A stretch of 64,000 bases of DNA. Origin: an uncultured Chloroflexia bacterium. Lineage in GTDB: Bacteria > Chloroflexota > Limnocylindria > Limnocylindrales > CSP1-4. The stretch's first letter is position 1; every line of letters starts with the position of its first letter. Under the pieces are notes generated by a model, which worked only from the letters and a program-made list of their open reading frames with translations, was not told the DNA's origin and ran no database searches. Of this stretch, positions 1,917 to 58,088 are shown one piece after another. Where the stretch lies: positions 118,847 to 182,846 of the forward strand of contig CAVZSO010000010.1 in the NCBI GenBank assembly GCA_963777975.1, written 5' to 3'. Made by a program: the position numbers and the translations under genes.

Positions 1917-2718
1917 ATGACCAACGAACGCGCAGAGATCGGCATCTTCGGCGGGTCGGGCTTCTACTCCTTCCTCGACGACGCGCACGAGGTCGAGATC
2001 GAGACGCCCTATGGTGCGCCGTCCGCACCGCTGACCCTGGGCTCGATCGGCGGTCGGTCGGTGGCCTTCCTGCCGCGCCACGGCAGGGCCCACCAGTTCC
2101 CGCCGCACATGATCAACTACCGGGCCAACCTGTGGGCGATGCAGGCCTGTGGCGTGCAGCCGGATCGTGGGACCGTGCGCCGTCGGCTCGCTTCGTGCCG
2201 ATGTCCATCCGGGCGAGTTCCTCATCGCCGACCAGCTGGTCGATCGGACCAACGCCCGCAAGGACACGTTCTACGACGGGCCCAAGACCACGCACGTCTC
2301 CTTCGCCGACCCGTACTGCCCGACGCTCCGCCCGATCGCCGTCCAGACCGCGCGCGACGAGGGCATCAGCGTCCACGACCGGGGCACCATGGTCGTCATC
2401 CAGGGACCGCGCTTCTCGACCCGTGCCGAGTCGCGCTGGTTCTCGTCGGCGGGCTGGTCCGTGGTCGGCATGACGCAGTACCCGGAGGCGTACCTGGCCC
2501 GCGAGCTCGAGATCTGCTTCGTCAACGTCTCGCTGGTGACCGACTACGACGCCGGCCTCGAGGACGACGATGCGCCGGTGACGCACGAGGGCGTGCTCGA
2601 GGTCTTCGACGCCAACGTCGAGAAGGTCCGCCGCCTGCTCTTCGCGCTGGTGCCGCGCATCCCGGTCGAACGAGACTGCCCCTGTGCCACGGCCCTCGGC
2701 AGCGCCAGCAGCGACTAG
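1917..2718 (+). pseudogene. mtnP: S-methyl-5'-thioadenosine phosphorylase (MTAP/MtnP) with an apparent +1 frameshift near 2157-2162
   Basis: N-terminal part [19 protein letters not shown]...[31 protein letters not shown] is in frame 0. It continues in frame +1 as [20 protein letters not shown]...[10 protein letters not shown]. One extra C in CAGCCGG joins two halves of a canonical MTAP. Confidence 0.7.
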
Positions 2719-2733
2719 CAGGTCGTCCGGCTG

Positions 2734-3378
2734 GTGACAGACGACACGAGCCTGCTGGATCTCGCCGACTGGCGTCGACGAGTGGCGGAGATGTGGTCCG
2801 AATGGCGGTCCGGCTGCCAGACGGATCCTGCGGCCGCGACGGCGAAGCTGCGCGCCACCCGCGACGTGCTGTACAGGACCCACCCACAGTCTCCACTGCC
2901 CGAGCAGGATCGGGAGCGGTTCGCCGGAGTCCCGACGTGGCCCTACGATCCGGCGTGGCGCCTGCGCGCGTCCCTCGTGCTCGATGCGGGATCCGAACCG
3001 GGGCTGCTGCCCGTGCCGTGGACGGCGCCGTCCACGGTCGCCATGCGGCTCATCGGCCACGTCGATCTGACCGTGCCGTTGGCCGGCCAGCGGCTGCCGG
3101 TCTTCTGGATCGAGGGTTATACCGGCGGTCTCTTCATCCCGTTTCGCGACCTGACGTCGGGAAACGAGACGTACGGGGCGGGCCGATATCTGATCGATAC
3201 GGCGAAGTCCGCGGACCACGGCCGCGATCCGGTGACGGAGGAGTTGGTCCTGGACTTCAACGTCGTCTACCACCCTTCCTGCGTCTACGACCCGCGATGG
3301 ACATGCCCGCTGGCGCCGCCAGGCAGTCGATTGGACGCAGCGGTCCGTGTCGGCGACCGCCTCCCGGCTCCCGCCTGA
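2734..3378 (+). CDS. DUF1684 family protein
   Basis: 214 aa; C-terminal YGAGRYLID...[19 protein letters not shown] matches the DUF1684 signature. Confidence 0.55.
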
Positions 3379-3489
3379 TCACTCGCCGACGATCACGTCA
3401 TGCCGCCCGGCGGTCCCAGGACGGCCGATGCGACACGTGACCCTCTCTCGCGTACCATCGGCCTACCCTCTCGCCACCCGGAGCCGCCC

Positions 3490-3930
3490 ATGCCCGATGC
3501 CGTTGCCGGATTGACGCCCGCCGTTCGCCGGTACCTCGACGTCCCGCCACGCCACGCCACGCTGGCCACGAGCGGCACCGACGGGACGCCCCATGTGAGC
3601 GTCATCTGGTATCGCCTCGAGGGGGACGACATCCTCGTCAACTCGCGCGTGGGGCGGCGATGGCCGCGTGAGCTGCAGGCTGATCCGCGCTGCGCCCTGA
3701 CGGTCATCCATCCGGACATCGACCACGAGCTGTACGTCGCCATCCAGGCCGAGGCCGAGGTCGTGGCGACCGGGGCCGCGGCGCTGGCCGACATCCAGGC
3801 GCTGGCGCGGCGGTACGGTGGCGATCCGGCCAAGTTCGAGGGCCAGTCGCGCATCAGCTTCCGCCTGCGGCCGACGTCGGTCGTCGTCCACGGTGCGCTC
3901 GAGCCGGCAGCGGCCGAGGTCGGCGCGTGA
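3490..3930 (+). CDS. PPOX-class F420-dependent / pyridoxamine 5'-phosphate oxidase family protein
   Basis: GLTPAVRRYLDVPPRHATLATSGTDGTPHVSVIWYRLEGDDILVNS resembles the Rv1155-like FMN/F420-binding split-barrel fold. GTGA overlap with the downstream fgd. Confidence 0.55.
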   Translation: MPDAVAGLTPAVRRYLDVPPRHATLATSGTDGTPHVSVIWYRLEGDDILVNSRVGRRWPRELQADPRCALTVIHPDIDHELYVAIQAEAEVVATGAAALADIQALARRYGGDPAKFEGQSRISFRLRPTSVVVHGALEPAAAEVGA

Positions 3931-4916
3931 GCCGGCCGAAGATCGGCTACGCGGCGATGCTCGAGCAGTTCCATCCGACCGAGCTGCTCGAGATGTGCAC
4001 GGCCGCGGAAGCGGCCGGCTTCGACGGCATCATGGCGGCCGACCACGTCCAGCCCTGGGTCCCGCAGCAGGGCCAGGCGGCCTATGTCTGGAGCTTCATG
4101 ACGGCGGCCCTGGAGCGCACGCGCGGCGACGTCGGTCCAGGCGTGACCTGTCCCAGCTTCCGCCAGCACCCGGCCATGGTGGCGCAGGCGGCCGCGACCA
4201 TGGCGGCCATGTATCCGGGCCGATTCTGGCTCGGGTTGGGGTCCGGCGAGGCGCTCAACGAGCACATCGTGGCCACGTACTGGCCCGAGGCGCCGGAGCG
4301 GATCGCGCGCATGTTCGAGGCCATCGAGATCATACGCAAGCTCTTCAGCGGCAAGGACGTCAAGCACAAGGGCGAGTACTACCGCATGGAGACGATGCGC
4401 TTGTGGACGATGCCCGCCACGACGCCGCTCATCTATGTCGCCACTGCGGGGCCGATCACGGCCAAGAAGGTGGGCGCCCTGGCGGACGGGATCATCACGG
4501 TCGGCGCTCCCGAGGGCCGGGTCCAGACCCTGATGGAGAAATGCTTCGAGGGCTGCGTCGAGGCGGGCAAGGATCCGGCGAAGTTCAAGTCGATCCTCCA
4601 GCTCCACCTGTCGTGGGCAGCGACGGACGAAGAGGCGATGGCCAACGCGTTGCTCGAGTGGCCGAACGGGGGCATGCGCTTCCCCAAGCAGGACATCCGC
4701 TCGCCGCACGACCTCGAGCAGATGGCCCGACTCGTGCGTCCCGAGGACTTCCAGGGCCGCATGCTCATCAGCTCCGATCTCGAGGCGCACCGACAGGAGA
4801 TCCAGCGCTACCTGGACGTCGGCTTCGACGAGATCTACCTCCACAACGTCGGTCGCAATCAGCTCGAATGGGCGGAGGTCTTCGGCCGTGAGGTCCTGCC
4901 AGGGTTGACCGCGTGA
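3927..4916 (+). CDS. fgd: F420-dependent glucose-6-phosphate dehydrogenase family (LLM class)
   Basis: 329 aa; AAEAAGFDGIMAADHVQPW...LGLGSGEALNEHIV aligns closely with mycobacterial Fgd1 (DHFQPW, LGVGTGEALNE). Confidence 0.7.
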   Translation: MSRPKIGYAAMLEQFHPTELLEMCTAAEAAGFDGIMAADHVQPWVPQQGQAAYVWSFMTAALERTRGDVGPGVTCPSFRQHPAMVAQAAATMAAMYPGRFWLGLGSGEALNEHIVATYWPEAPERIARMFEAIEIIRKLFSGKDVKHKGEYYRMETMRLWTMPATTPLIYVATAGPITAKKVGALADGIITVGAPEGRVQTLMEKCFEGCVEAGKDPAKFKSILQLHLSWAATDEEAMANALLEWPNGGMRFPKQDIRSPHDLEQMARLVRPEDFQGRMLISSDLEAHRQEIQRYLDVGFDEIYLHNVGRNQLEWAEVFGREVLPGLTA

Positions 4917-4959
4917 ACCGGGCCGAGCCCGGCAAACCGACCTGTATCGGCTCCCGGGC

Positions 4960-6872: not shown

Positions 6873-6971
6873 TGGGCTCGGCGGTCTCCTTCGTCCGCCT
6901 CTCGGCTGGAGGGGCCGAGCGGTCGGCTCGTAACCCTCCACGGATCGACGAGGTCGGCGCATCATCCGTCG

Positions 6972-9596: not shown

Positions 9597-9659
9597 CCGC
9601 TGCACGAGTCGCGTGAGGGCCGGCGACATCCGACCGCGAGCGTCGCCTACCATCCGTCC

Positions 9660-10349: not shown

Positions 10350-10362
10350 GCCGACGGTCGGG

Positions 10363-11157: not shown

Positions 11158-11203
11158 CGACCCCTTCCCCGAGACGACGGCCGCGCCTACGATTTCGCGC
11201 GTG

Positions 11204-11446: not shown

Positions 11447-11455
11447 GATAGGTGC

Positions 11456-12574
11456 ATGGTCAACGAATCCAAGGGCTTTACCGGCATCCAGATGATCGAC
11501 GCGGGGGCAGCCGATGCGGTCCCGGCGACGAAGCCGGTGAGCGCCTTTCCGACCATCGCGCAGGTCGCCGAGCCCAGCCTCCAGCCGGCCGAGCCGGCGG
11601 CGGTCGAGGCAGGTGAGTTCGGCGGCGGCGTCAGCAAGGTCGTCATCGTCGGCTCCGGCCCCGCCGGCCTGACGGCGGCCATCTACGCGGCGCGCGCCAA
11701 CCTCGAGCCGCTGGTCATCGCCGGCCTCGTGCCCGGCGGTCAGCTGATGATCACCAGCGACGTCGAGAACTACCCAGGCTTCCCGGACGGCATCCAGGGA
11801 CCCGAGCTGATGGACCTCTTTCGGAAACAGGCCGCGCGCTTCGGGACGCGCTTCGTCGACAAGGACCTGGAGCGGGTCGACTTCAGCCAGCGGCCCTTCA
11901 GACTCTGGGCCGGCGGCATCGAGCACCGCGCCGAATCCGTCATCGTCGCCACCGGGGCGTCGGCCATCTGGCTGGGCCTGGAGAGCGAGACGCGGCTGCG
12001 CGGTCGGGGCGTCAGCGCCTGCGCGACCTGTGACGGCTTCTTCTTCCGCGACAAGCACGTCGGCGTCGTCGGAGGCGGCGACTCCGCGCTCGAAGAGGCG
12101 ACCTTCCTGACCAAGTTCGCCAGGCGGGTCACGATGATCCATCGCCGCGATGAGTTTCGTGGCTCCAAGATCATGCGCGACCGCGCACTCAACGACCCCA
12201 AGATCGACGTCCGCTGGAACAGCGAGGTCGCCGAGGTCATCGGCGACGACGTGGTCAGCGGCCTGCGCCTGCGCGACACCGCGACCGGCCAGGAGCACGA
12301 GGAGCCGATGGACGGGCTCTTCGTCGCCATCGGGCATCAGCCCAATACCGACGTCTTCCGCGACTGGCTCGAGGTCGACCCGAAGGGCTACCTCGTCGTG
12401 CACGACCAGACCGGCACCAAGGTCGAGGGGGTCTTCGTCGCCGGCGACGTCCACGATCATCGCTACCGGCAGGCCGTCACCGCCGCGGGAGACGGCTGTC
12501 GGGCGGCCATCGATGCCGAGCGCTGGCTCGAATCGGTCGGCCTGGCCGAGGCGGCGACCTCGACCGCCTGGTGA
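11456..12574 (+). CDS. trxB: thioredoxin-disulfide reductase with ~55-aa N-terminal extension
   Basis: VIVGSGPAGLTAAIYAARANLEP, CATCDGFFFRDK (redox-active CxxC), GGGDSALEEATFL, HRRDEFR. Alternative ATG at 11492. Confidence 0.8.
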   Translation: MVNESKGFTGIQMIDAGAADAVPATKPVSAFPTIAQVAEPSLQPAEPAAVEAGEFGGGVSKVVIVGSGPAGLTAAIYAARANLEPLVIAGLVPGGQLMITSDVENYPGFPDGIQGPELMDLFRKQAARFGTRFVDKDLERVDFSQRPFRLWAGGIEHRAESVIVATGASAIWLGLESETRLRGRGVSACATCDGFFFRDKHVGVVGGGDSALEEATFLTKFARRVTMIHRRDEFRGSKIMRDRALNDPKIDVRWNSEVAEVIGDDVVSGLRLRDTATGQEHEEPMDGLFVAIGHQPNTDVFRDWLEVDPKGYLVVHDQTGTKVEGVFVAGDVHDHRYRQAVTAAGDGCRAAIDAERWLESVGLAEAATSTAW

Positions 12575-14725
12575 CGGCGCCCTCGATCGGCGCCCTGCCG
12601 AGCCCGCGCCAGGTCATCTTCCGGGTCGAGGCGCTGGCCGACCCACGCATCCGACTCTTCCTGACCAGCGCGACGCTGCTCTTCGTCGAGCTGCTGCTCA
12701 TCCGCTGGATCCCGGCCAACGTCCGTTACGTCGGCTTCTTCAGCAACTTCCTGCTGATGGCCAGCTTCCTGGGCATCGGCCTCGGCATCCTCCTGGGGCG
12801 GAAGGGCTGGCGGCTGCCGTTCTCGCCGTTCACCCTGCTCCTCTTCGTCGTCGTGGCCCTCGTCGTCACGGCCGAGCTCAACGTCCAGATCAACTCCCAG
12901 GACGAGCTCTTCTTCGGCCTCGCCGAGAACACCGCCGCGGACGCCAACTTCATCGTCCTGCCCCTCGTCGTCGGCCTGGTGGCGGCCGTCATGGCGTCAC
13001 TCGCGTTGCCACTCGGGCCGCTCTTCCGGGCGATGCCGCCCCTGCGACGCCTACGCCATCGACATCGTCGGCTCGATGGTCGGCATCATCGGCTTCACGG
13101 CACTCTCGGCGGCCGGCACGAACCCGGTCGTCTGGTTCAGCGTGCTCGCCGTCCTCGTCCTGCTGATCGCGCTGGGCGGGGGCATCACGCCCTGGTCGTT
13201 CGTGGCCGGCGCGGCCGATGCTGGGCGTCATCTACGCCGTCGTCATCCAGGCCGGCAGCGGGGACATCTGGTCGCCCTACTATCGGATCACGACCTACCC
13301 GCTCGCGGATGGCACGCTGAACGTCAACGTCAACGGCATCCCGCACCAGGCCCTCCATCCGGTCGATCGAGCCGAAGGAACCGTTCTACGACCAGGTCTA
13401 CGAGTGGTTCCCGGGTCGCACGTACGACGACGTGCTCATCGTCGGCGCCGGCAGCGGCTCGGACGTGGCCATCGCGCTCGATCGCGGCGCCAAGCACGTG
13501 GATGCGGTCGAGATCGACCCCGCCATCCAGCGCATCGGCGTCGAGCATCACCCCGATCACCCCTACGACGACCCGCGGGTGACGCGGATCGTCAACGACG
13601 GCCGGGCGTTCCTGCGCGACGACGGACAAGCAGTACGACCTGGTCGTCTTCGCGCTGCCCGACTCGCTGACCCTGGTCAGCACCGCAGCCAACATCCGGC
13701 TGGAGTCGTTCCTGTTCACCGAGGAGGCCTTCGCGAGCGTGCGCGACCACCTCAAGCCAGGCGGCATCTTCGTGCTCTACAACTACTACCGCGAGCCATG
13801 GCTGGTGGCCAAGCTGCAGGGGATGCTGACGGACGCCTTCGGCTCGCCTCCGCTCGTGCGCACCTATTCCAACGTCCAGGCGGCCCTCGCCGCGGGACCG
13901 GGCGTGGCGGCTGTCGGCGGCGTGCCACCGGGCGACGGCGTCAGCGAGGTGCCCGACCCGGGCCAGCCGGAGCCCCGGCCGGCGACCGATGACTGGCCGT
14001 TCCTGTACCTGCGCACGGGCTTCATCGCGCCCTACTACCTCGTCGCCCTGGCCATCATCCTCGGCTTCGCGCTGGTCGCGGTGCTCGGGGCGGCGCGCGT
14101 GACGGGGACCCCCATCCGACGCTTCAGCCCGCACTTCTTCGTCCTCGGCACGGCCTTCCTGCTGCTCGAGACCCGCAGCCTGGTCAGCTTCAGCCTGCTC
14201 TTCGGCACGACCTGGATCGTCAACGCGCTGGCCTTCTTCGCCATCCTGGCCAGCGTCCTGGTGGCCATCCTCATCAACGCCCGCTTCCCCATCCGCCACC
14301 CGAACGTCTTCTACATCGGGCTCTTCGTGGCCCTCGGGGTCGCCTTCCTGCTGCCGCCCGAGCAGCTGCTCATCGACCCGCCCTGGCTGCGCTACGTCGT
14401 GGCCGCCGCGCTCGCCTTCACGCCCGTCTTCTTCGCCAACCTCGTCTTCAGCCACTCGTTCCGCGACACGACCACGGCCGACATGGCCTTCGCCAGCAAC
14501 CTGCTGGGGGCGATGGTCGGCGGCGCCCTGGAGTACCTGGCGCTGCTGACCGGCTACCGCGCCCTGCTGCCGCTGGTCGCCGTCCTGTACCTGCTGGCCT
14601 GGCTCTTCGCCACCCGCTGGCGTCGCCTGGCCGACCGCGACCTGGAGGCGGGCACGGCCGACCAGGCCGGCATCGACCACGCCGGCACGACCGAGCCGGG
14701 CACCGTGCTGGAGGGGGCGACCTGA
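12571..14725 (+). pseudogene. spermidine-synthase-like membrane protein (N-terminal polytopic domain + SpeE methyltransferase-fold + C-terminal TM domain) broken by four +1 frameshifts
   Basis: Five successive ORFs (12571, 13076, 13218, 13432, 13739) each step +1 in frame. Concatenated they read ...LGPLFRAMPP|CDAYAIDIVGSMVGIIGF...FVAGAA|MLGVIYAVVIQAGSGDIW...HPVD|IEPKEPFYDQVYEWFPGRTYDDVLIVGAGSGSDVAIALDRGAKHVDAVEIDP...AFLRD|TDKQYDLVVFALPDS...VLYNYYREPW... Junctions are near 13041, 13217, 13366 and 13625. Confidence 0.65.
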
Positions 14726-18140: not shown

Positions 18141-19149
18141 ATGGATACCAGGGGCGCGGCGACGCCAGCCGACTCGGGTCCGGGATCGGTCGCCATCCGG
18201 ACCCAGGATCTGACCAAGTCATATGGCGAGGTGACGGCCGTCGACGGCCTCGACCTCGAGGTCCGCTTCGGCGAGGTGTTCGGTCTCCTGGGCCCCAACG
18301 GAGCGGGCAAGACGACGACCATCCTGATGCTCCTGGGATTGACCGAGCGCGACGAGGGCACGGCCGAGGTCCTGGGCCTCGACCCTGCCCGCCACCCGCT
18401 CGAGGTCAAGCGCCGCGTCGGCTACCTGCCGGACGACGTCGGCTTCTACTCGGGCATGACCGGCCGCGAGAACCTGCGCTACACCGCGCGACTCAATCGG
18501 ATGTCGTCGGCGTCGACCGAGCAGCGCATCGATGCGCTTGCTCGAGCGAGTCGGGCTGGTCGAGGCGGCGGACCGGGCGGTCGAGACCTACTCGCGCGGT
18601 ATGCGACAGCGACTCGGCCTCGCGGACGTCCTGCTGCCCGAGCCTCGCATCGCGATCCTCGACGAGCCGACGGCCGCCATCGACCCGGTCGGTGCCAACG
18701 AGCTGCTCGGGCTCATCCGCAACCTGGCCGACGAGGAGGGTGTGGCGGTCCTGCTCTCGAGCCACCTCCTCCTTCAGGTCGAGCGCGTCTGCAGCCGGGT
18801 CGGCATCTTCGTGCGCGGCCGCATGGTCGAGCAGGGCACGGTCGCCGAGCTGGCCGGGCGGATGCCGACCGAGCAGATCCGGATCGAGGTCGGCTGTGAC
18901 GGCGACCCGGCGGCAACACGTCGGGCGCTGTCGGAGATGGACGGCCTCCACGTCCTCGAGCAGGACCGCGCTGATCCGCGCATCTGGGTCGTCGCCAGCG
19001 ACGGCGATCGCCGGCGTGAGCTTGCCGCCGGGCTGTCCGATCGCGGCCTCGCCATCTTCCACCTTCGCAGCACCGGCGTCGGCCTCGAGGAGGTCTATCG
19101 GCGCTACTTCCATCAGGCCGAGGAGGACGCCGATGACTCCGCAGCCTGA
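18141..19149 (+). pseudogene. ABC transporter ATP-binding protein (ABC-2/CcmA type) with an apparent +1 frameshift near 18537
   Basis: Frame 0: [41 protein letters not shown]...STEQRIDA. Frame +1 continues [29 protein letters not shown]...[10 protein letters not shown]. The junction gcgCttgctc carries one extra base. Confidence 0.7.
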
Positions 19150-23698: not shown

Positions 23699-24483
23699 GC
23701 ACGATGGTCGTCGTCAAGCTCGGCGGCACGACCGTGGCCGGACAGGAGGCGGTCCTCTCGGAGATCGCCGCCACCGCCCGCCAGCGGCCGGTGGTCGTGG
23801 TCCATGGCGGCGGCGTCCAGGTCACCGAGTGGCTGACACGGATGGGCGTGCCGACCCGTTTCGAGGATGGCCTGCGCATCACCGACGAGGCGGCCATCGA
23901 GGTCGTCGCCGCGGTGTTGCGCGGCGCCATCAATACGGCGCTCGTGGCCGCCCTGCGCGCTCGCGGGGCCGATGCGGTCGGGTTGTCCGGGGTCGATGGC
24001 GGCCTGCTGGTCGCCGAACGGACGCCGGACAAGGGCCTGGTCGCGACCGTCGTCGACGTTCGCCGATCGCTCATCGACGCGCTGCTCGTCGACGGCCGGG
24101 TGCCGGTCGTGGCCCCGCTCGCACTCGATGAGATGGGCGTGGTGTGCAACGTCAACGCCGACGACGTGGCCGCCGGTCTGGCCCGCGGGCTTGGCGCGCA
24201 GCGCTTGGTCCTGCTGACGGACACGGACGGGGTGCTGGGCAGCGACGGCCAGCGCATCGCCACCCTCGGCGCGGCCGAGCTCGAGGCCCTCATCACCGAC
24301 GGCACCATCGGCCAGGGCATGGTGCCCAAGGTGCGATCCGCTGCTGGTGCCCTGGCCGGGGCCGGGCAGGTCGTCATCGCCGATGCAGCCTCGCCACACG
24401 CCCTGTCGCGCGCTCTCGCCGACGAGGACGTCGGCACGCGCATCGTGGCCACCACCGGGCCCGCCGCGACCGGAGCCCGCTGA
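23695..24483 (+). CDS. argB: acetylglutamate kinase
   Basis: MSTMVVVKLGG, VVVHGGG, VCNVNADDVAAGLA; ATGA overlap with argJ stop. Confidence 0.85.
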   Translation: MSTMVVVKLGGTTVAGQEAVLSEIAATARQRPVVVVHGGGVQVTEWLTRMGVPTRFEDGLRITDEAAIEVVAAVLRGAINTALVAALRARGADAVGLSGVDGGLLVAERTPDKGLVATVVDVRRSLIDALLVDGRVPVVAPLALDEMGVVCNVNADDVAAGLARGLGAQRLVLLTDTDGVLGSDGQRIATLGAAELEALITDGTIGQGMVPKVRSAAGALAGAGQVVIADAASPHALSRALADEDVGTRIVATTGPAATGAR

Positions 24484-24996
24484 TGGTCGTTTCGGCCAGC
24501 CCGACCACCAAACGTGCCCGCCAGCGGGCCATCATCGAGATCGTGGCGCGCACGCCCATCGCCAGCCAGGAAGAGCTCGTCGAGCAGCTCGCTGTCGCGC
24601 GGCTTCGCGGTCACCCAGGCGACCGTCTCGCGCGACGTGGCCGAGCTGCGCCTGGTCAAGCTCCTGCGTGGCGACCGCCACGTCTACGTCAGCCCGGACG
24701 ACCTCGCCAACACGCCCGATCCGGATGCCGACGGTCGGCTGGTCCGGCTCCTCGACGAGACGCCGCTGACGGTCGGGCGGAGCGGCCTGATCCTCGTCGT
24801 CCGTGGCCCGGTCGGCAGCGCGCAGGCCCTGGCGCGAGCCATCGACCAGTCCGGCATGCGCGAGCAGGAAGGCACCCTGGCCGGTGACGACACCGTCCTC
24901 GTCCTCTTCGCCGACGAAGAGCGCCTGGTGGCATGGCATCGACGTTTCCGAGCCCTTCAGGGCCTGCCCAGCGAACCACAGGGAGCACGACCATGA
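24483..24996 (+). pseudogene. argR: arginine repressor ArgR with an apparent +1 frameshift near 24595
   Basis: Frame 0: MVVSASPTTKRARQRAIIEIVARTPIASQEELVEQLA. Frame +1 continues SRGFAVTQATVSRDVAELRLVKL...DDTVLVLFADE (ArgR C-domain). ATGA overlap with argB. Confidence 0.7.
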
Positions 24997-41721: not shown

Positions 41722-41730
41722 GGTGTCGCC

Positions 41731-43061: not shown

Positions 43062-43071
43062 TCGGGAGCGA

Positions 43072-45192: not shown

Positions 45193-45339
45193 AGGGTCAC
45201 CTCGAGCGGAAAGGGCTGTGGTGGTCCAGTCTACCGGCGCGATGGTGGGCCCGGCAGGCTGGCTACGGCGGTCGGTCCGGATGTCGGATGGGACCGGCTG
45301 CGAGGGTCACACGCGACCGGCTGGTCGTATCCTGCGGCG

Positions 45340-46074: not shown

Positions 46075-46093
46075 AGGCGCCTAGCATCGCGTC

Positions 46094-46471: not shown

Positions 46472-46558
46472 GACCGGTTCGGGCGCAGCCGCGCAGCAGG
46501 TCCCACGTTGCGGACTGACCGAAGGGTCATGGACGACGTCGGACGCGAGCGCGGTACG

Positions 46559-48716
46559 ATGAAGCCAAGCAGCCCCGTCCACGAGGCCCGACACCGACCC
46601 CTGATGACCGCCATCCGCCCGCCTGCGACTCGACGTCGACCGCGTCCGATCGACCCGCCGGCCATCCCCTACATCAACCGCGAGCTCTCGTTGCTCGACC
46701 TGAACGCGCGCGTCCTGCACGAGGCGACCGATGAGCGCAACCCGCTGCTGGAGCGGGTTCGCTTCCTGTCGATCGTCTCGGGCATCCTCGACGAGTTCTT
46801 CCAGATCCGCGTGGCGGGCCTCAAGCAGCAGGTCGAGGCAGGACATTCGAAGCTCGGGCCGGACGGACGCAGCGCTGCCGAGACGCTGTCCGAGGCACGA
46901 CGCAAGGTGCTCGACCTGATCGTCGAGCACACGCTGGCCTTCAACAAGGTTCGCGAGGCGATGGCCGAGCAGGGCATCACCATCGTGCGCTACGACGAAC
47001 GACCCGAGCGCCACCTCGAGCTGCGACGGATGTTCATCGACCAGATCTTCCCGGTCCTGACGCCGCTGGCCGTCGACCCTGGCCATCCCTTTCCGTACAT
47101 CAGCGATCTGTCACTCTCCCTCGCGGTGACCGTGCGCGATCCCGAGACGGGCGAGCGAGACTTCGCCCGCATCAAGGTCCCCGAGGTCCTGCCGCGCATG
47201 GTCGAGGTCGGCGTTCGGACCTACATGCTCCTGGAGCAGATCATCGCGGCCAACCTCGATGCGCTCTTCCCGGGCATGGAGATCGTCGAGCACCATCTCT
47301 TCCGAGTGACCAGGAATGCCGACCTGGCGATCGAGGAGGACGAGGCGGATGACCTCCTGCTGGCCATCGAGGAGGAGCTCCGGCGGCGACGGTTCGGCGA
47401 GGCGGTGCGCCTCGAGGTCGAGCGCTCGATGCCGACCGAGACGCGGTCGATCCTGCGGCGTGGCCTGGGCGTCGGCCCCGAGGATGTCTACGAGATCTCG
47501 GGCATGCTCGATCTGCGGGCGCTGGAGACGATCGCCGACCTCGAGATCCCCGAGCTGCAGCGCGAGCCCTGGCACCCGGTCGTCCCCGCGCGGCTGCTGC
47601 CGCACGACGAGGACGAGGAGGCAGACGTCTTCGCCGCCATCCGCACCGGCGACCTGCTCGTCCACCACCCGTATGAGTCGTTCGTCGGCTCCGTCCAGCG
47701 CTTCATCGAGCAGGCGGCCAGCGATCCAGACGTGCTGACCATCAAGATGACCCTCTACCGGACGACGGGCGACTCACCGATCCTCAAGGCGCTCATCCGG
47801 GCCGCCGAGAACGGCAAGCAGGTCGTCGTCCTGGTCGAGATCAAGGCCCGTTTCGACGAGCAGGCGAACATCGTCTGGGGCCGCACGCTGGAGCGCGCCG
47901 GCGCCCACGTCGTCTACGGCCTGGTCGGCCTCAAGACCCACTCCAAGACGGCGCTCGTCGTGCGCCGCGAGGGCGGCGGCCTGCGTCGCTACGTCCACAT
48001 CGGGACCGGCAACTACAACCACAGGACCGCACAGGCTCTACGTCGACTTGGGCATGCTGACCTGCGACGACGAGATCGGCGCCGATGTGACCGACCTCTT
48101 CAACTTCCTGACCGGACTCTCCCGCCAGCGCCGCTTCCGCCGGCTGCTGATCGCACCGGTCAGCCTGCGGCCGCGCATCGAGGAGCTCATCGAAGGTGAG
48201 ATCGAGCGCCAGGCGTCGGATGCTGATGGCGCCATCACCATGAAGCTCAACGCGCTCGTCGATCCGGGCATCATCGCTGCCCTCTGCCGTGCCAGTCAGG
48301 CGGGCGTGCCAGTGGATCTCATCGTGCGGGGTGCCTGCGCCCTCCGGCCGGGCGTCAAGGACGTCAGCGAGGGGATCCGCGTCCGTTCCATCATCGGCCC
48401 CTTGCTCGAGCACTCTCGGATCCTGCGCTTCGGACAGGGCGAGCGGACGACGCACTGGATCGGCTCGGCCGACATGATGGATCGCAACCTCGACCGCCGC
48501 GTCGAGGCCGTGGCGCCGGTCCTCGACCCCGTCAGCAAGGGCCGCCTCGATCACATCCTCGAGGTCATGCTGGCCGACGACCGACGAGCCTGGGAGCTTG
48601 GTCCCGACGAGCGCTGGCAACGGGTCGAGTGGCGACTCGAGAACCCCACGGGCCTCGACACGTTCGAGGTCTTCAAGCAGGAAGCCCTCTCCGCGGGCGC
48701 GACGGAGGTGGCATGA
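46559..48716 (+). pseudogene. ppk: polyphosphate kinase 1 with an apparent +1 frameshift near 48030
   Basis: YINRELSLLDLNARVLHEA...YVHIGTGNYNHRTAQ in one frame. The +1 frame continues LYVDLGMLTCDDEIGADVTDLFNFLTG...HSRILRF (PLD-like HxK region). One extra G at cagGctc. Confidence 0.75.
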
Positions 48717-50776: not shown

Positions 50777-50804
50777 GCAGGCGCGGCACCCGCGGCGAGG
50801 CGAG

Positions 50805-51773
50805 TCAGCCCGCGTCCGGCCAGCCGGCGGTCAATGCGGTCAGCTGTGAGCGCCAACCCGGGCCCGCGTGCCGCAGGGCCAGGACCGCACCTTCACGCAG
50901 GCTCGCTTCGCTGACCTCGACGGTCTCGAGCTCGTAGCGCTCCATGAACGCCAGCACCAGCGCCGCGCCGGCCGGCAGCAGGCGGGCCCGAGTCGGGGTC
51001 AGGCGATAGCGCTCGGCCAGCACGGCGCTTGGCGTTCGGTCGATCTCGTGGATCGCCTGTTCGACGCCGACCCGCGGCACGGCCGTGTCCGGCGCCGCCG
51101 GGTCACCGCCCCTGACCCCGGCCACCACCCGAGCGACGTTCGTGGCGCTGCCACCGACGAAGACCGCGCGCGACGGATGGCCACGCGGCGCGGCGGCCAG
51201 GAGCTCGCGGGCCCGTATCGCGAGCTGCTCTCGATCGGCCGGCATCGGCGGGTCGGCCGGCTCGCAGGCCTGGGTCAGTCGGCTGGAGCCGGTCGCGATG
51301 ATGAACGTCCGAGGCGGGACGCCCGGACCCTGGACGATGGCTTCCGTCGAGCCGCCGCCGATATCGACGACCAGGAGCGGCGCCTCGACCGGCGCCCCGC
51401 CGGTCACGCCGAGCAGGGTCAGCTCGGCCTCGTCGGCATGATCGAGGACCACGATGGGCACGCCGATCCGGCCCAGGACCATCTCGGAGACCTCGTCGGC
51501 ATCCGTCGCCCGACGGAACGGTTCCGCCCCCAGCAGGAGCAGCTCGTTGGCATGCCATCGGCGGGCCGTGGTAGCGAAGCCCTCGAGCGTCTCGACGAGT
51601 GCGGTGCGCGCCGCGAAGGGCAGCCGCCCATCGCGATCGACGATGCCGCCCAGGCCGAGCAGGGCGCTCTCGTCGGCCAGAGGCGTGACCGTGTGGTCGC
51701 CAACCAGCGCCACCAGCAGGTGAGCCGTGTTGCTTCCGATGTCGACGGCCGCGATGACCTCAGGCGCCTGCAC
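50805..51773 (-). CDS. ppx: Ppx/GppA family exopolyphosphatase
   Basis: IAAVDIGSNTAHLLV, LLVVDIGGGSTE. Confidence 0.75.
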   Translation of the reverse strand: MQAPEVIAAVDIGSNTAHLLVALVGDHTVTPLADESALLGLGGIVDRDGRLPFAARTALVETLEGFATTARRWHANELLLLGAEPFRRATDADEVSEMVLGRIGVPIVVLDHADEAELTLLGVTGGAPVEAPLLVVDIGGGSTEAIVQGPGVPPRTFIIATGSSRLTQACEPADPPMPADREQLAIRARELLAAAPRGHPSRAVFVGGSATNVARVVAGVRGGDPAAPDTAVPRVGVEQAIHEIDRTPSAVLAERYRLTPTRARLLPAGAALVLAFMERYELETVEVSEASLREGAVLALRHAGPGWRSQLTALTAGWPDAG

Positions 51774-52422
51774 ACCTCAAGGATGACAGGGCCCGCGACG
51801 GATGCGGGGGCCAGGTCGAGGCCGGCCGCCGCTGGCGAAGCCGGGCGCCGAACCTGGCGCCGTTCAGCCGGCCGCCTTGCCTCGCGCTCCGCGGCGTGGT
51901 CGCGGCCGACCTCGGGCTGCGCGCGACCGGCGCCGGCTCGGCTGAGGTACCGGACGTGGACTCCACCGCTGTCGCTTGCGCCGGGGCGCGACGCCCCGTC
52001 GTTCGGCGGCGCACGGCTGGCTTCTTCGCCGCGGTGGTCGTGGCGCGAGGTCGCGACGGCGTCCCCGCCCTTCGGGCTGCGGCGAGATCCGACCGGATCG
52101 CGGCCACGAGCGCGTTGACGGCGGCCTGGAGCTCTTTGGCGGTGACCAGCTGCTCCTCGAGCTCGGCGACCTTCTTGAGGCGCTTCTTCTCGGCCTTGGC
52201 GGCCTTGGCGGCCGCCTTCTTGGTCGCCTCGGCGGCGGCCCTGGCCGCGGCCCGCTCGGCCTTGGAGGGCTTTGGAGCGGGCGCGTCGGCCGCCCCGGCA
52301 GCGGCTTCGCCGCCTGACTTGTGCTTGGCCATCTCGAGGAGCTCCTTGTCGGTGGGCACCGTGCCGGACCCTTGCTCGTCCGGGACGCGCAGTATCCCAC
52401 CCTCCGACGCGTACCAAGCCAT
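51760..52422 (-). CDS. hypothetical Lys/Ala-rich coiled-coil protein with basic low-complexity tail
   Basis: ATG 52422. KAERAAARAAAEATKKAAAKAAKAEKKRLKKVAELEEQL. The C-terminal 80 aa is low-complexity R/S/T/P-rich and could conceal a frameshift. Overlaps the ppx start by 14 nt. Confidence 0.3.
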   Translation of the reverse strand: MAWYASEGGILRVPDEQGSGTVPTDKELLEMAKHKSGGEAAAGAADAPAPKPSKAERAAARAAAEATKKAAAKAAKAEKKRLKKVAELEEQLVTAKELQAAVNALVAAIRSDLAAARRAGTPSRPRATTTAAKKPAVRRRTTGRRAPAQATAVESTSGTSAEPAPVARSPRSAATTPRSARQGGRLNGARFGARLRQRRPASTWPPHPSRALSSLRCAGA

Positions 52423-52492
52423 GGCGCATCGTTAACACGCCGAACACGACAAGAAAATGGTGCGTTGACGCACGCAGCCGAGACTGCGGGCC

Positions 52493-53572
52493 ATGAACCA
52501 CACGATTCGCACCACGACCCTGCCCCGCCGCGCCCGTCTCGCTGGCCTTGCGGCAGCCAGTCTCATGCTGGTCAGCGCCTGCGCCACCGGGGGGAGCTCG
52601 CCAGCCGCGAGCACGGGGACATCATCCGAGCCAACCCCGACGACGGCAGCGTCCGGGGCCGCGGGCCTCGAGGGCACCATCGCCATCTCGGGCTCATCGA
52701 CGGTCCAGCCCATCACGTCGGCCATCGCGGAGGCCTTCAACGGCACCAATCCTGACGTTGCGATCTCGGTCGACGGACCGGGCACCGGTGACGGCTTCAA
52801 GCTCTTCTGCGCCGGGTCGATCGACATCAGCGACGCCTCGCGCACGATCAAGGACGAGGAGGCCGCGCTGTGCAAGACGGCCGGCATCGACTACATCGAG
52901 CTCAAGATCGCCATCGATGGCATCTCCGTGCTGACGTCGACGGACAACACCGCGGTCGCCTGCCTGTCGTTCGCCGACTTGTACGCGCTCATCGGCGAGC
53001 AGTCCAAGGGCTTCAAGACCTGGGCCGACGCGCAGCCACTGGCCAAGGAACTCGGCTCGAACACGACGTTCCCGAGTGGCTCCCTCGACATCTTCGGTCC
53101 CGGCGAGGAATCGGGCACCTACGACAGCTTCATCGAACTGGCCCTCAAGACGATCGCCGTCGCCCGAGGTCAAACGGGCACGGCCACCCGCCCCGACTAC
53201 ACCTCGTCGGCCAACGACAACGCGATCATCGATGGCATCGCCAATTCGGCGACCTCGCTGGGCTGGGTGGGCTTCGCCTATGCCGAGGAGAACAAGGACA
53301 AGGTCGGCGAGATCGCCGTCTCCAAGGACCCCAACGGCACGTGCGTGTCGCCGAATGCCGAGACGATCGCGAGCGGCGAGTATCCGCTGTCGCGTGCCCT
53401 GTACATCTACGTCAACAAGGCCAAGCTCGCCGACAACGCCGCCCTGGCGCCGTTCGTCGACTACTACCTGGCTGATGGCACCATCTCGACGGCACTCGAG
53501 ACGGTCCCCTACATCAACCTCGCGCCAGAAGAGCTAGCCAAGACCGTGGCGACCTGGACCGGCAGCCACTGA
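52493..53572 (+). CDS. pstS: phosphate ABC transporter substrate-binding protein
   Basis: Lipoprotein-like signal LAGLAAASLMLVSACA; GSSTVQP, DGPGTGDGF. Confidence 0.85.
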   Translation: MNHTIRTTTLPRRARLAGLAAASLMLVSACATGGSSPAASTGTSSEPTPTTAASGAAGLEGTIAISGSSTVQPITSAIAEAFNGTNPDVAISVDGPGTGDGFKLFCAGSIDISDASRTIKDEEAALCKTAGIDYIELKIAIDGISVLTSTDNTAVACLSFADLYALIGEQSKGFKTWADAQPLAKELGSNTTFPSGSLDIFGPGEESGTYDSFIELALKTIAVARGQTGTATRPDYTSSANDNAIIDGIANSATSLGWVGFAYAEENKDKVGEIAVSKDPNGTCVSPNAETIASGEYPLSRALYIYVNKAKLADNAALAPFVDYYLADGTISTALETVPYINLAPEELAKTVATWTGSH

Positions 53573-53600
53573 TCGTCGTCTTGGATACGTCCTCTTCCCT

Positions 53601-53634
53601 CCGAGGCCGGACTCCCATCCTGGGTCTCGGCCTC
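53601..53634 (+). terminator. GC-rich hairpin (CGAGGCCG...CGGCCTCG, extendable) between pstS and pstC; candidate intra-operon attenuator/processing stem-loop (no U-tract)
   Basis: Seen directly: 8-bp perfect arms with additional flanking pairs and an 18-nt loop. Confidence 0.4.
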
Positions 53635-53669
53635 GCCCTCCTGCCGGTGACGCGAGGCCAAGCTGACCG

Positions 53670-54611
53670 ATGACCGCGAGCTCAGGCGCGATACCCGTCG
53701 CGCCACGGCCGCACCTGACGGGGTCGCCCACGCGACGCCGCAACGAGCGGATCGTGCGTTCCGTCTTGTTCCTTGCGGCGCTCGTATCGATCCTCATCTC
53801 CGCGTTCATCGTCCTGAGCATCATCGGTCAGGCGTTCAGCTTCCTGGCCCAGATCGACCTGTCCCAGCTGACCGCCGAGGGGTGGTTCCCACGTCGCGGC
53901 CTGTTCGGGATCTCGACGCTCATCGTCGGATCGCTCCTGGTGACCGGCATCGCCATCGTCATCGCAGCACCGGTCGGCATCGCGTCCGCGATCTACCTCG
54001 CGGAGTACTCCGGTCCGCGGACACGCGGCATCGTCAAGCCCATCCTGGAGATCCTGGCAGGCATCCCGAGCGTCGTGCTCGGTTTCTTCGCGCTCACGGT
54101 CATCACGCCAAAGGTCATCCAGGTCTTCTTCCCGACTGCCAACGGCTTCAACCTGCTGGCGGCCGGCATCGGCGTCGGCATCCTGACCATCCCGCTCATC
54201 GCGACCATCTCGGAGGACGCCATGCGCGCCGTGCCTCACTCGCTCCGGGAGGGGGCCTACGGCCTGGGCGCACGGCGCGCCACCGTCAGCCTGCGCATCG
54301 TGGTACCGGCGGCCATCTCGGGCATCGTGGCCGCGCTCATCCTCGGCATCTCGCGCAGCATCGGCGAGACGATGGTCGTGGCGCTCGCGGCGGGCGCGTC
54401 CGGTGGCACGCTGTTCACGACGAACGTCCTGGGACCCGGCCAGACGGTGACCGCCGCGATGGCGGCCCTGGCCACGGGCTCCGACCAGGTGACTGGCAAC
54501 ACGGCGGCCTTCCAGAGCCTCTTCTTCCTGGGCCTGATGCTCTTCCTGGCGACCCTCGGCCTGAACGTCCTCGGCGACGCCTTCGTGCGTCGGACGCGGC
54601 AGCGCTACTGA
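53670..54611 (+). CDS. pstC: phosphate ABC transporter permease PstC
   Basis: 313 aa; EAA-like loop and typical PstC TM pattern. Confidence 0.85.
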   Translation: MTASSGAIPVAPRPHLTGSPTRRRNERIVRSVLFLAALVSILISAFIVLSIIGQAFSFLAQIDLSQLTAEGWFPRRGLFGISTLIVGSLLVTGIAIVIAAPVGIASAIYLAEYSGPRTRGIVKPILEILAGIPSVVLGFFALTVITPKVIQVFFPTANGFNLLAAGIGVGILTIPLIATISEDAMRAVPHSLREGAYGLGARRATVSLRIVVPAAISGIVAALILGISRSIGETMVVALAAGASGGTLFTTNVLGPGQTVTAAMAALATGSDQVTGNTAAFQSLFFLGLMLFLATLGLNVLGDAFVRRTRQRY

Positions 54612-54619
54612 GCCGCGCG

Positions 54620-55552
54620 ATGACCACCGTCGCACCGCCCGTATCAGCCCAGGCGGCCACCTCGATCCCACTTGGTGAGCACCGCCGGAACGTGGGCGGC
54701 CTGACGTTTCACGTGCTGCTGCTCATCGCACTGCTCTTCTCGCTGGGCGTGCTCGCGACGCTCGTGATCAGCGTCCTGATCGGCGGTCTGCCGGTCCTCA
54801 TGGAGCGCGGGCTCGACTTTCTGACCAGCCCGACGTCGGCCAACCCGAACAAGGCCGGCGTCGTGCAAGGCATCATCGGCTCGCTCATCATGACCGCGAT
54901 CGTGGCCCTGGTCGCCATCCCGCTGGGCATCATGACCGCCATCTACCTCGAGGAGTACGCGCCCGCGAGCCGGCTCTCGCGCTTCATCGACATCAACATC
55001 CGCAACCTGGCCGGCGTGCCCTCGATCGTCTACGGCCTCCTCGGCTTCACGGTCTTCGTGACGGTCCTGGCACCAGTGACTGGCGGCACGACCATGCTGT
55101 CGGCAGGGCTGACGCTTGCCGCACTCGTGCTGCCCATCGTCATCATCGCCTCGGCCGAGGCTATCCGGTCGGTGCCGCACGAGCTTCGCGAAGGTGGCTA
55201 CGGGATCGGCGCCTCGCGCTGGCAGGTGACCCGAGAGCTCGTCCTGCCGGCGGCCATGCCGGGGATCCTGACGGGTACCATCCTGGCCCTCGCGCGGGCG
55301 ATCGGCGAGACGGCTCCCCTGCTGCTCGTGGGCGCGGTGCTGGGCTACTTCTCGAGTGGTAGCCAGGGGCCCCTCGAGCAGCTGTTCGGCAAGTTCACGG
55401 CCTTGCCGACCCTCATCTACGACTGGGCTCGGCGCCCCCAGAGCGAGTTCAGGGACCTGACCTCGGCCGCTATCATCGTGTTGCTGGTGATCACGCTCTT
55501 TGCCACCGCGGTCTCCATCTACCTCCGCAACAGGTACCAGAAGAGATGGTGA
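54620..55552 (+). CDS. pstA: phosphate ABC transporter permease PstA
   Basis: 310 aa; follows pstC. Confidence 0.85.
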
Positions 55553-56442
55553 TGCAAGAGGACCTGACGGTGACGCACGACGACCCGATGGTCGCGCCCA
55601 GCGAGGCGCCAGGGCACGGTTCCGCGACGATGACATCACCGCGACTCTCGCCCGAGGTCTTCGGGGCGGCTGTGGCCGTCGAGCCCATCATCAGACTCGT
55701 GGACGTCTCCATCTGGTACGGGCTCTTCCGGGCCGTGCGCGGCTTCTCGGCGGAGATCCCGGCCAATCGGGTGACGTCCCTCATCGGTCCGTCGGGCAGC
55801 GGGAAGTCCACGTTGCTCCGGTCGATCAACCGCATGAACGACCTGATCCCTGGCGCCCGATTGGAGGGTGGCGTCCTCTATCACGGACAAGACCTCTACG
55901 GCGCCGGCATCGATGCGGTCGAGGTTCGTCGGCGCATCGGCATGGTCTTCCAGAAGCCCAACCCATTCCCCAAGTCCATCTACGACAACGTCGCCTTCGG
56001 CCCGCGGCTGAGCGGCTTCAAGGGAGACCTCGACGGGCTCGTCGAGACCAGCCTCCGCCGCGCCGCGCTGTGGGACGAGGTCAAGGACAAGCTCAAGTCG
56101 TCCGGCCTCGCACTCTCGGGCGGCCAGCAGCAGCGCCTGTGTATCGCCCGCGCCATCGCCACCGAGCCAGAGGTCATCCTGATGGACGAGCCGTGCTCGG
56201 CGCTGGACCCGCGGGCCACGCTCCAGATCGAGGAGCTGATGCGGGATCTCAAGGAGCGCTACACGATCGTCATCGTGACCCACAACATGCAGCAAGCGGC
56301 ACGCGCATCGGACCGCACCATCTTCATGACTATGGGCGAGGATCGGGCCGGCTACGTCGTCGAGGCCGACGAGACGAACCGCATCTTCACGCAGCCGGCC
56401 AACCAGCTGACCGAGGACTACGTGTCGGGACGCTTCGGATGA
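55546..56442 (+). CDS. pstB: phosphate ABC transporter ATP-binding protein
   Basis: [35 protein letters not shown]. Confidence 0.85.
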
Positions 56443-57182
56443 GCGAGCTCGAACGGGGCTCCGGCGCCGTGCCCGTCGAGGCCAGCAACGAAGGGCCCAG
56501 CCACGAGCCCTCGCCGCGGGCCGACATCGCGCGCTCGCCGCTCGACCGGGAGATGCGCGAAGCCAAGGATGGCGTGCTGCGCATGGGCTCGATGGTCGAG
56601 ATCCAGATTCGCAAGGCCCTCGAGGCACTCGTCGCGCACGACGAGGCGGCGGCCACGGCGGTCATCATCGGCGACCGGCGCATCAACGAGGTCCAGGTCG
56701 AGGTCTCCAACGTCATCACCACGGCCATCGCGACCCAGGGTCCGGTCGCGCGCGACCTGCGCTTCCTGCTGACGCTCGACCACGTGACCTACGAGCTGGA
56801 GCGGATGGGCGACCACGCATCGTCGGTCGCCAAGCAGGCCCGCAAGCTGGCGCCCTTCCCTCCGCTCAAAGGCTATGTCGACCTGCCCCGCCTGGCCTCC
56901 CTGGTCGCCGATCAGGTCAGAGGCATCCTCCATGCGCTGGTCGACATCGACGTCGAGCGCGCTCGAACGGTGGCAGCCGTCGATGACGAGATCGACACCC
57001 TCTATCACCACATCTTCGATCAGGTCGTCGAGCTCATGCGCGCGAACCCCGACAACGTCGATCGTGGCACGCGCATCCTCTTCGCCGCGCATTACCTCGA
57101 GCGCATCGGCGACCGGGTCACGAACATCGCCGAGGACATCGTCTTCCTGGCCTCAGGGCAGATCGAGGACCTCAACCCCTGA
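56439..57182 (+). CDS. phoU: phosphate signalling complex protein PhoU
   Basis: Two PhoU repeats with conserved ExxxD motifs ([22 protein letters not shown]). ATGA overlap with pstB. Confidence 0.8.
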
Positions 57183-57614
57183 CGACGACCGCTCGACCCG
57201 CTCGTGTCCTGTTCGCCTGCGTGGCGAACTCGGCACGGAGCCAGATGGCCGAGGCCCTGCTGGCCGCTCGGGGCGGCGCCAGCTTCACGCCGGCCAGCGC
57301 GGGTGTCGTGGCCAGCCGCGTCCACCCGCTCACGATCGCGGTCCTGGCGGAGCTGGGGATCGACTGGTCAAGGGCCACCTCGAAGGCGCTGGCGCCGATG
57401 CTCGAGCACGACTGGGACCTGGTGGTGACGGTCTGCGATGAGGCGGTCGAGGCCTGCCCCTACATCCCGCCACCGACCCGCGTCCTGCACTGGTCGTTCG
57501 ACGACCCGGCTGCCGCGACCGGCAGGCGACGCGCAACGGCTGACGACCTTTCGACGCGTTCGCGACGAGATCGCCACGCACATCGATGCCCTCGTCGAAA
57601 CGGAGACGCGATGA
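57179..57614 (+). pseudogene. arsC: LMW-PTP-type (thioredoxin-coupled) arsenate reductase with an apparent +1 frameshift near 57520-57545 and a non-canonical CTG start overlapping the phoU stop
   Basis: RVLFACVANSARSQMAEALL (CX5R P-loop), VVTVCDEAVEACPYIP (Cys pair). After DPAAATG the +1 frame continues TFRRVRDEIATHIDALVETETR*. The first in-frame ATG/GTG would delete the catalytic Cys. Confidence 0.55.
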
Positions 57615-58088
57615 CCGAGCTGCTCATGCTGCGCCACGCCCACGCCGGCGATCCGATGGCCTGGACCAAGTCCGACGACATCCGACCGCTGTCCAAGAAG
57701 GGCCGCGACCAGGCGGCCCGCATGGCCACCTTCCTGGCTGCGAGCCGGGGTCCGGCCCGACGTCATCGTCTCCAGCCCGAAGGCCCGAGCGATGCAGACG
57801 GCCACGCCAGTCGCCGACGAGCTGGGCCTGAAGGTGCGAGTCGACGAGCGCCTGGCCGAACCCTTCGGCCTGGCCGAGATCGAGGCGTTGCTCGTCGACC
57901 TGGGCGACCCGGAACGCCCGATGCTCGTGGGCCACGATCCTGACTTCACGTCGCTCGTTGCCGTCCTCTGCCACGCGCCATCGGTGCCCATGCGCAAGGG
58001 AGCCCTGGTGCGCATCGACGCGCCACGGCCACTGTGTCCCGGGTGCGGCACGCTGCGCTGGTTGGTGCCGCCGGAGCTGCTGCCCTAG
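57611..58088 (+). pseudogene. sixA: SixA-like phosphohistidine phosphatase (histidine phosphatase superfamily) with an apparent +1 frameshift near 57748
   Basis: MTELLMLRHAHAG (RHG motif)...ATFLAAS in one frame. The +1 frame continues VRPDVIVSSPKARAMQTATPVADELGL...LVGHDPDFTSL. ATGA overlap with arsC. Confidence 0.55.

Follow-up and report, generated by a model that had tools for sequence, protein, structure and literature searches.

Single-base indels that split intact conserved genes are familiar from Nanopore and other long-read consensus sequences, being the problem with which the IDEEL test is concerned, and gene calls broken by frameshifts are known to result from indels left in Nanopore consensus sequence (PMC9262707). 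Conserved genes that read as consecutive ORFs in different frames are also a feature of pseudogenes of the Mycobacterium leprae type, and shifts in the +1 direction are found in programmed frameshifting of the prfB/RF2 type. The window studied here, this being the whole 64,000-nucleotide stretch of DNA analysed, has nearest relatives among Limnocylindrales MAGs and shares something with each of these systems. With pseudogenes of the M. leprae type it shares the consecutive ORFs, with prfB/RF2 the +1 direction, and with long-read consensus errors both a lesion rate that follows platform and pipeline and the intact state of orthologues and of short-read assemblies of relatives.

Comparison of the window with these relatives identified ten +1 frameshifts, each caused by the insertion of a single base, which are distributed over seven genes:

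1917..2718, + strand, mtnP (5'-methylthioadenosine phosphorylase), extra G at 2156, GGCGT[G]CAGCC
12571..14725, + strand, speE-like membrane protein with a spermidine-synthase domain, four extra bases giving four successive +1 switches, at 13046 (C[G]A), 13217 (C[G]A), 13367 (T[C]G) and 13621 (C[G]A)
18141..19149, + strand, ABC transporter ATPase, extra base at 18540, CTT[G]CTC
24483..24996, + strand, argR, extra C at 24596, GCTGT[C]GCGCGG
46604..48716, + strand, ppk1 (polyphosphate kinase 1), extra A at 48031, ACCGC[A]CAGG
57245..57614, + strand, arsC-like low-molecular-weight phosphatase, extra G at 57525, GGCA[G]GCGAC
57611..58088, + strand, sixA-like histidine phosphatase, extra G at 57742, GCTGC[G]AGCC

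The called positions lie within 2–6 bp of those of an earlier note on this DNA, which had counted eleven such frameshifts. The ten sites that it listed were confirmed by the relatives; the eleventh does not exist. No further frame-changing indel within a gene was found in the ~43 kb that could be aligned to relatives (~90% nucleotide identity), and Pfam coverage revealed no additional frameshift in the 20 genes lying outside these alignments. Three kinds of candidate were considered and rejected. The arsC N-terminal truncation is a start-codon issue and no frameshift, because L081, one of the relatives, is arranged identically; the 1-bp difference seen at 3418 lies outside any gene, with the true start at the ATG of 3490; and the remaining 1-bp differences to L002 and L081 all lie between genes.

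Among the genes compared with relatives, 10 insertions were counted against 0 deletions, and premature stops were absent, in keeping with the insertion-only pattern that had been claimed. Nine of the ten sites were recovered independently by a codon-usage HMM as stop-less frame switches, every one of them +1; with this detector the window has a rate of 0.095 per kb, exclusively of the insertion type. The insertions are not evenly spread, since four of the ten sites are clustered within 576 bp of the speE-like gene. The description of the affected genes as essential was borne out only in that they are conserved, and not in the strict sense. All ten sites lie in genes of the + strand, which has 72.5% of the coding bases, but this bias (p ~0.04 by site) is not significant when sites are grouped by gene (p ~0.1) and was not taken to be a real effect.

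When a single base is taken out at each site, the seven genes encode, in the order listed, proteins of 266, 716, 335, 170, 703, 122 and 158 aa with 0 internal stops. In all seven genes the repaired protein matches orthologue length exactly and the Pfam domains are contiguous across every junction. In mtnP, the frame switches from 2 to 0 and is shifted at codon 80; the extra base is not present in a JGI contig (L083, 92.7% nucleotide identity), and the repaired protein is 97% identical to P0121/P0252 and covers positions 1–232 of the 233 of the PNP_UDP_1 profile. The ABC transporter ATPase likewise switches from frame 2 to 0 at a base that L002 lacks, and once repaired has 95.5% identity to the L002 orthologue over the same 335 aa length, with positions 2–137 of the 137 of the ABC_tran profile covered. 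At the argR site, the surrounding ~80 nt match L002 exactly with the extra C as the sole difference, and the repaired protein equals its L001 and L003 counterparts in length, with both Arg_repressor domains whole.

The ppk1 insertion falls within the conserved GTGNYN-TARLY stretch and is not present in L081, while an intact ppk1 of 703 aa is found on L082, a contig of short-read style. The repaired protein has four contiguous PPK domains; the top matches listed for it are of ~670–740 aa, many being exactly 703, and the matches listed for both mtnP and ppk1 are near full length. The two phosphatase genes also lack their extra bases in L081, where the gene calls are of the repaired lengths; the arsC-like protein matches the LMWPc domain, and in the sixA-like protein His_Phos_1 spans the junction.

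The speE-like gene, relatives of whose protein are encoded at 528 genome loci, is aligned with single-column gaps in L001, L003 and both copies in L002 at each of the four sites, and its repaired product possesses the Spermine_synth domain. The stretch holding the four sites is mosaic and hypervariable, with 74–82% identity to the L002 copies against at least 90% in the flanks. L002 has two tandem copies of the gene and the window has one; it is possible that collapse of tandem paralogues could account for the cluster of four sites.

The earlier note had proposed a comparison with orthologous loci in close relatives, and in this comparison the extra bases were absent from all six relatives fetched (L001, L002, L003, L081, L082 and L083), none of which is interrupted at any of the ten sites. 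Two of the intact loci, L083 for mtnP and L082 for ppk1, are on contigs with the names of a short-read assembler. No same-species contig is on record by exact match of two intact window proteins, and exact-DNA scans of JGI metagenome contigs over the mtnP and argR sites, with the extra base present or absent, gave 0 matches.

Programmed +1 ribosomal frameshifting or transcriptional slippage could in principle restore full-length proteins from such genes, as the shifts are all +1 and the joined frames give complete proteins. However, each of the ten sites is read in one frame in the orthologues, and there is therefore no conserved shift site. Unlike prfB/RF2, the window sites also have no in-frame stop, no stimulatory Shine-Dalgarno sequence and no common slippery motif; where 0-frame stops are present, these follow only after tens to hundreds of nucleotides, and there are no homopolymer runs that would support transcriptional slippage. 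Such recoding has next to no probability here and is effectively refuted by the in-frame orthologues.

Purifying selection persists downstream of the shifts. Values of dN/dS there are 0.05–0.20 in six of the seven genes, as upstream, with dS of ~0.25–0.45, although a test of this kind is blind to very recent inactivation; the arsC tail gives 0.5, a noisy value from only 29 codons. These results bear on the reading that the lesions are real and mark a very recent pseudogenisation, in which a burst of single-base insertions, such as might be produced by an insertion-biased mutator, has led to the loss of MtnP, ArgR, PPK1 and others. The extra bases do stand in the deposited sequence, and every product would be truncated or scrambled by them. 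Bacterial pseudogenes, however, show a deletion bias, and the window in contrast has insertions exclusively, without premature stops or larger lesions. Further differences to pseudogenes of the M. leprae type are that selection is not relaxed, that no interruption is common to any relative, and that one base removed per lesion regains the orthologue length. Real gene decay is considered very unlikely, the more so as the same signature occurs in other genes of Nanopore-only MAGs and at a far lower rate in other related loci.

This last point comes from a census of 73 related loci, made up of 17 from the Nanopore-only MFD MAGs and 56 others whose short-read status was taken from contig names. 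The MFD-LR MAGs were sequenced by Nanopore only, assembled with Flye (metaFlye) and given a single round of Medaka polishing (PMC12313526). Stop-less switches of the insertion type were found at 0.108 per coding kb in the 17 MFD loci versus 0.014 in the 56 others, an eightfold difference, whereas the gap was much smaller for switches of the deletion type (0.024 versus 0.014). The counts of insertion to deletion switches were 36:8 in the MFD loci and 11:11 in the others (Fisher p=0.01), and those confirmed by homology were 20:3 and 3:2, respectively. Insertion-type lesions thus track the sequencing platform in related MAGs. The sister Nanopore MAG MFD02242.bin.2.300 has lesions of the same kind in other genes, with one further insertion in copy 1 of its speE-like gene and 16 insertion events, 15 of a single base and one of 2 bp, in its peptidase S9 gene, which is intact at 706 aa both in the window and in the short-read-style contig L082.

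The base-level context was analysed for 36 placed insertions, including the ten of the window. Just five of the 36 extend a homopolymer, against a null expectation of 51% (p=4e-6), while 20 create a CpG (null 14%, p=7e-9) and 11 are of the form C[G]A or T[C]G (null 3.6%, p=4e-8). In the window by itself, C[G]A or T[C]G is found at six of the ten sites (p=4e-7), and only one insertion, that at 57525 in the arsC-like gene, can be read as the extension of an identical neighbour, for which the null is again 51%. The insertions outside the window carry the same homopolymer-avoiding, CpG and C[G]A/T[C]G biases, and those of the window and of the Nanopore MAGs have a common base-level signature.

With respect to classical long-read errors, there are clear differences. 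Nanopore consensus indels are described in the literature as lying mostly in homopolymers (PMC9262707), and the classical errors as mostly deletions, while those seen here are insertion-only, seldom extend homopolymers and favour CpG creation, often by a change of CA->CGA. They can also occur in dense clusters, such as the four that the window has within 576 bp and the 16 events packed into ~1.2 kb of the peptidase gene of L081. As at least nine of the ten window sites are outside homopolymers, this is not the classical Nanopore error mode, and the classical homopolymer indel of Nanopore R9, 454 or Ion Torrent was rejected as the explanation on the counts of identical-neighbour extension given above (one of ten in the window, five of 36 in total). 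A literature search for an insertion-only, non-homopolymer Nanopore error mode gave just general statements about homopolymer indels.

The same contexts bear on the idea that the extra bases arose by random insertion, either in silico or in the handling of the data, as in a corrupted or deliberately perturbed sequence. Isolated single-base insertions in clean genes would look alike in either case, but random insertion should extend an identical neighbour at ~51% of sites, where one in ten was observed, and should give C[G]A or T[C]G at ~3.6%, where six in ten were observed (p as above). The window pattern, moreover, matches that of independent public Nanopore MAGs. Such an origin is extremely improbable.

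A merged-allele artefact, which is one specific mechanism within the artefact view, deserves more weight, though it too is rather unlikely. According to this explanation, the polisher would write both alleles of a SNP consecutively in a strain-mixed population, leaving a one-base insertion. The inserted base is unlike both its neighbours at nine of the ten sites, and at seven it could stand in for the third-codon base beside it without changing the amino acid; at 13046, 13217 and 13367 both 'alleles' can be seen among L001, L002 and L003, and the four-site cluster lies in the mosaic, hypervariable part of the speE-like gene. The seven synonymous-neighbour sites are suggestive but not significant, however, because the chance expectation is ~45% (p ~0.09, an estimate). 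In L081, the 16 peptidase insertions are evenly spread over codon phases in a region of ordinary divergence, and the merging of alleles does not predict so strong a bias towards C[G]A and CpG.

The ten frameshifts are thus very probably consensus errors in a long-read metagenome contig from a soil bacterium of the Limnocylindria (Chloroflexota), most likely of the Nanopore-only, metaFlye plus Medaka type. That they are almost certainly artefacts follows from their odd signature, which is the same as that of the errors in related Nanopore-only MAGs; that the window itself comes from a Nanopore-only type of assembly is judged purely from its resemblance to these relatives. Uncorrected long-read insertion errors had been preferred over gene decay in the earlier note, and this view is supported by the intact relatives, the continuing selection, the platform-tracking lesions and the matching base context. 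In such a scheme, a basecalling, assembly or polishing step would introduce one spurious base per site, usually a G after a C that creates a CpG, often turning CA into CGA, after which gene callers would split what is an intact gene into at least two ORFs. As to the physical cause of the bias towards CpG, it is a more tentative suggestion, and less likely than not, that the signature is no random noise and reflects a systematic fault of basecalling or polishing in high-GC Limnocylindria, one that may depend on DNA modification. Such a fault would recur at ~0.1 per coding kb in Nanopore-only soil MAG catalogues and silently fragment on the order of 1 in 10 genes.

At face value, the window would suggest that arginine regulation, polyphosphate synthesis and methylthioadenosine salvage have been lost together, and this inference would be wrong; MtnP, ArgR, PPK1, the ABC transporter ATPase, the speE-like protein and the two phosphatase genes are presumably intact in the organism. 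With a spurious base about once in every 6 kb of coding sequence, a MAG of 3–4 Mb would have hundreds of split genes, which would distort pangenome, pseudogene and metabolic reconstructions. An insertion-only, non-homopolymer, CpG-creating C[G]A signature would be missed by homopolymer-aware filters, and it could itself serve to flag or correct error sites in Nanopore-only MAG catalogues. The biological interest of the frameshifts is low; the signature is of some value for quality control.

Raw ORF lists were of no use at the window's G+C content of 70%, and the window was segmented by Viterbi decoding with a codon-usage model trained on long ORFs. This gave nine same-strand frame switches without a stop codon at the junction, all nine being +1, near 2176, 13043, 13215, 13363, 13621, 18529, 24589, 48033, and 57735. 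A tenth, near 57525 in an arsC-like gene, is evident in three-frame translation and was missed by the model because the remaining tail is too short for it. The junctions of the − strand genes are all normal stop/start boundaries.

In a one-genome-per-species collection, the nearest relatives of the window are all metagenome-assembled genomes (MAGs), most of them carrying the label Limnocylindrales, Limnocylindria or Chloroflexota. Among long contigs the closest is contig_47174 of MFD02242.bin.2.300, the source of loci L002 and L081, with ~90% nucleotide identity to window positions 3384-24695 and 36634-58809, and for mtnP there is also a JGI contig (L083) of 92.7% nucleotide identity. No same-species sequence was found by exact-protein look-ups or by exact-DNA scans of JGI metagenome contigs across the mtnP and argR sites. 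Alignment of the window's DNA to relatives placed one extra window base at each site:

2156, + strand, mtnP, against L083
13046, 13217, 13367 and 13621, + strand, speE-like gene, against relatives' loci L001 and L003 and both gene copies in L002
18540, + strand, ABC ATPase, against L002
24596, + strand, argR, against L002
48031, + strand, ppk1, against L081
57525, + strand, arsC-like gene, against L081
57742, + strand, sixA-like gene, against L081

At argR, ~80 nt are identical in the window and L002 save for one extra C. No in-gene single-base deletions or premature stops were found in the genes compared between the window and its relatives. The remaining 1-bp differences from L002 or L081 are all intergenic and Pfam coverage is full in the 20 genes beyond the aligned regions; there are therefore ten sites and not the eleven counted in the earlier note, whose description of them as exclusively +1 single-base insertions was borne out. 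The ten all lie within + strand genes, and the inserted base is G on that strand in seven. The − strand genes (~17 kb coding) have none, a marginal result (p ~0.04 by site, ~0.1 by gene) which could reflect a strand-specific error context.

When one base is deleted at each site, the seven reading frames are free of internal stops and encode proteins of 266, 716, 335, 170, 703, 122, and 158 aa. Uninterrupted Pfam matches extend across all seven (PNP_UDP_1, Spermine_synth, ABC_tran, both ArgR domains, four PPK domains, LMWPc, and His_Phos_1), and six match the length of the aligned orthologue, with the speE-like protein near to it (708 vs. 717 aligned codons). Against the nearest orthologues dS is 0.2-0.5, and dN/dS 3′ of the shifts is 0.05-0.20, equal to the upstream value, the 29-codon arsC tail giving the sole noisy estimate. 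If real, all ten lesions would have to be extremely recent. The orthologous loci fetched (L001, L002, L003, L081, L082, and L083) are uninterrupted at all ten sites; ppk1 and mtnP relatives are near full length among the matches listed, and relatives of the speE-like protein are encoded at 528 genome loci. The genes differ from genuine pseudogenes on every point tested: the spectrum of lesions, the selection acting on them, and whether relatives share the lesions. Programmed +1 frameshifting does not account for the window's sites because the orthologues are in frame, with no conserved site and no in-frame stop.

Lesions of the same kind occur in the sister MAG MFD02242.bin.2.300, affecting other genes. 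Its peptidase S9 gene (L081 6431-7661) carries 16 insertion events in ~1.2 kb, 15 single-base and one of 2 bp, and its gene call covers a fragment of 364 aa; the full 706 aa are encoded intact by the window orthologue (43072-45192) and by that of the short-read-style contig L082. The speE-like gene of this MAG is present in two tandem copies, one of which also has a +1 insertion of its own. The MFD long-read MAGs are Nanopore-only, assembled with Flye and given one round of Medaka polishing (PMC12313526). The detector used for the window was applied to all 73 related loci fetched of at least 5 kb. The comparison loci count as short-read by their MEGAHIT- or SPAdes-style contig names; one or more of them may come from a hybrid assembly.

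Frame-switch events by assembly type (homology-confirmed: a single-frame orthologue spans the junction)
MFD Nanopore-only: 17 loci, 332 coding kb; 36 insertion-type, 8 deletion-type; 0.108 insertion-type/kb; homology-confirmed insertions to deletions 20:3
Other, short-read-style names: 56 loci, 811 coding kb; 11 insertion-type, 11 deletion-type; 0.014 insertion-type/kb; homology-confirmed 3:2

The insertion/deletion split differs between the two groups (Fisher p=0.01) and, in the MFD loci, from 1:1 (binomial p=2.5e-5); one seeming deletion-type event is actually two single-base insertions. The window gives 0.095/kb, insertion-type only.

Insertions placed to the base numbered 36 (10 in the window, 16 in the L081 peptidase gene and 10 in six other MFD MAGs). 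Only 5 extend an identical neighbour (random expectation 51%, p=4e-6), 20 make a new CpG (14%, p=7e-9) and 11 are C[G]A or the complementary T[C]G (3.6%, p=4e-8), a context found in 6 of 10 window sites (p=4e-7). The non-window insertions independently show the same biases. Such a shared non-random context counts against random biological mutation and random in-silico corruption, and links the window with the error mode seen in the MFD Nanopore-only assemblies. The window's insertions belong with long-read consensus indel artefacts, although their signature differs from the homopolymer indels published for Nanopore consensus (PMC9262707).

The four-site cluster lies within a mosaic, hypervariable speE-like stretch, where the consensus may have suffered locally from mixed alleles or from the collapse of paralogues. 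The window has a single speE-like copy (12571-14725) and MFD02242.bin.2.300 two in tandem (L002 7826-9974 and 10001-12103), the 3′ ~700 bp of which are 100% identical to one another; window positions 12765-13400 have 74-82% identity to either copy and 88% to L001. The pattern may stem from gene conversion, from the collapse of a repeat or from a duplication made in assembly. For the window it is attractive to regard each insertion as two SNP alleles written serially, but neither the L081 peptidase cluster nor the CpG bias supports this. DNA modification is one conceivable source of the C[G]A preference.

Given the Nanopore-linked insertion rate, common signature, low downstream dN/dS and intact relatives, the frameshifts are very probably an artefact and not a biological feature, as the earlier note had proposed in ascribing them to a technology-specific error. 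A basecaller or polisher would add the spurious base, which may reach the consensus through limited or heterogeneous coverage of a complex soil metagenome; gene callers then split the affected gene, as is seen here.

Three of the ten errors fall inside a compact phosphate-metabolism cluster (46604-58088), in the order ppk1, CYTH-CHAD protein, ppx (− strand), a small unannotated gene, pstS, pstC, pstA, pstB, phoU, arsC-like gene and sixA-like phosphatase, which is kept in L081 and L082. In the arsC-like phosphatase the catalytic CX5R loop (RVLFACVANSARS, with its Cys encoded near 57215) lies 5′ of the first canonical in-frame start, those in the region 57179-57245 being GTG 57221 and ATG 57245. 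The one plausible start is a CTG overlapping the phoU stop (CCCCTGA, 57179). The arrangement is kept in the sister MAG (L081 20484-20550), where the 122-aa gene call omits the active site. There are also two mtnP fragments, P0247 (132 aa) and P0250 (107 aa), in the protein cluster of the mtnP relative P0121, each on a 4083-bp JGI contig from a related population. This is probably one and the same contig, in which case mtnP would be split in another public assembly as well. The losses of ArgR, PPK1 and MTAP that could be read from the window are not to be believed.
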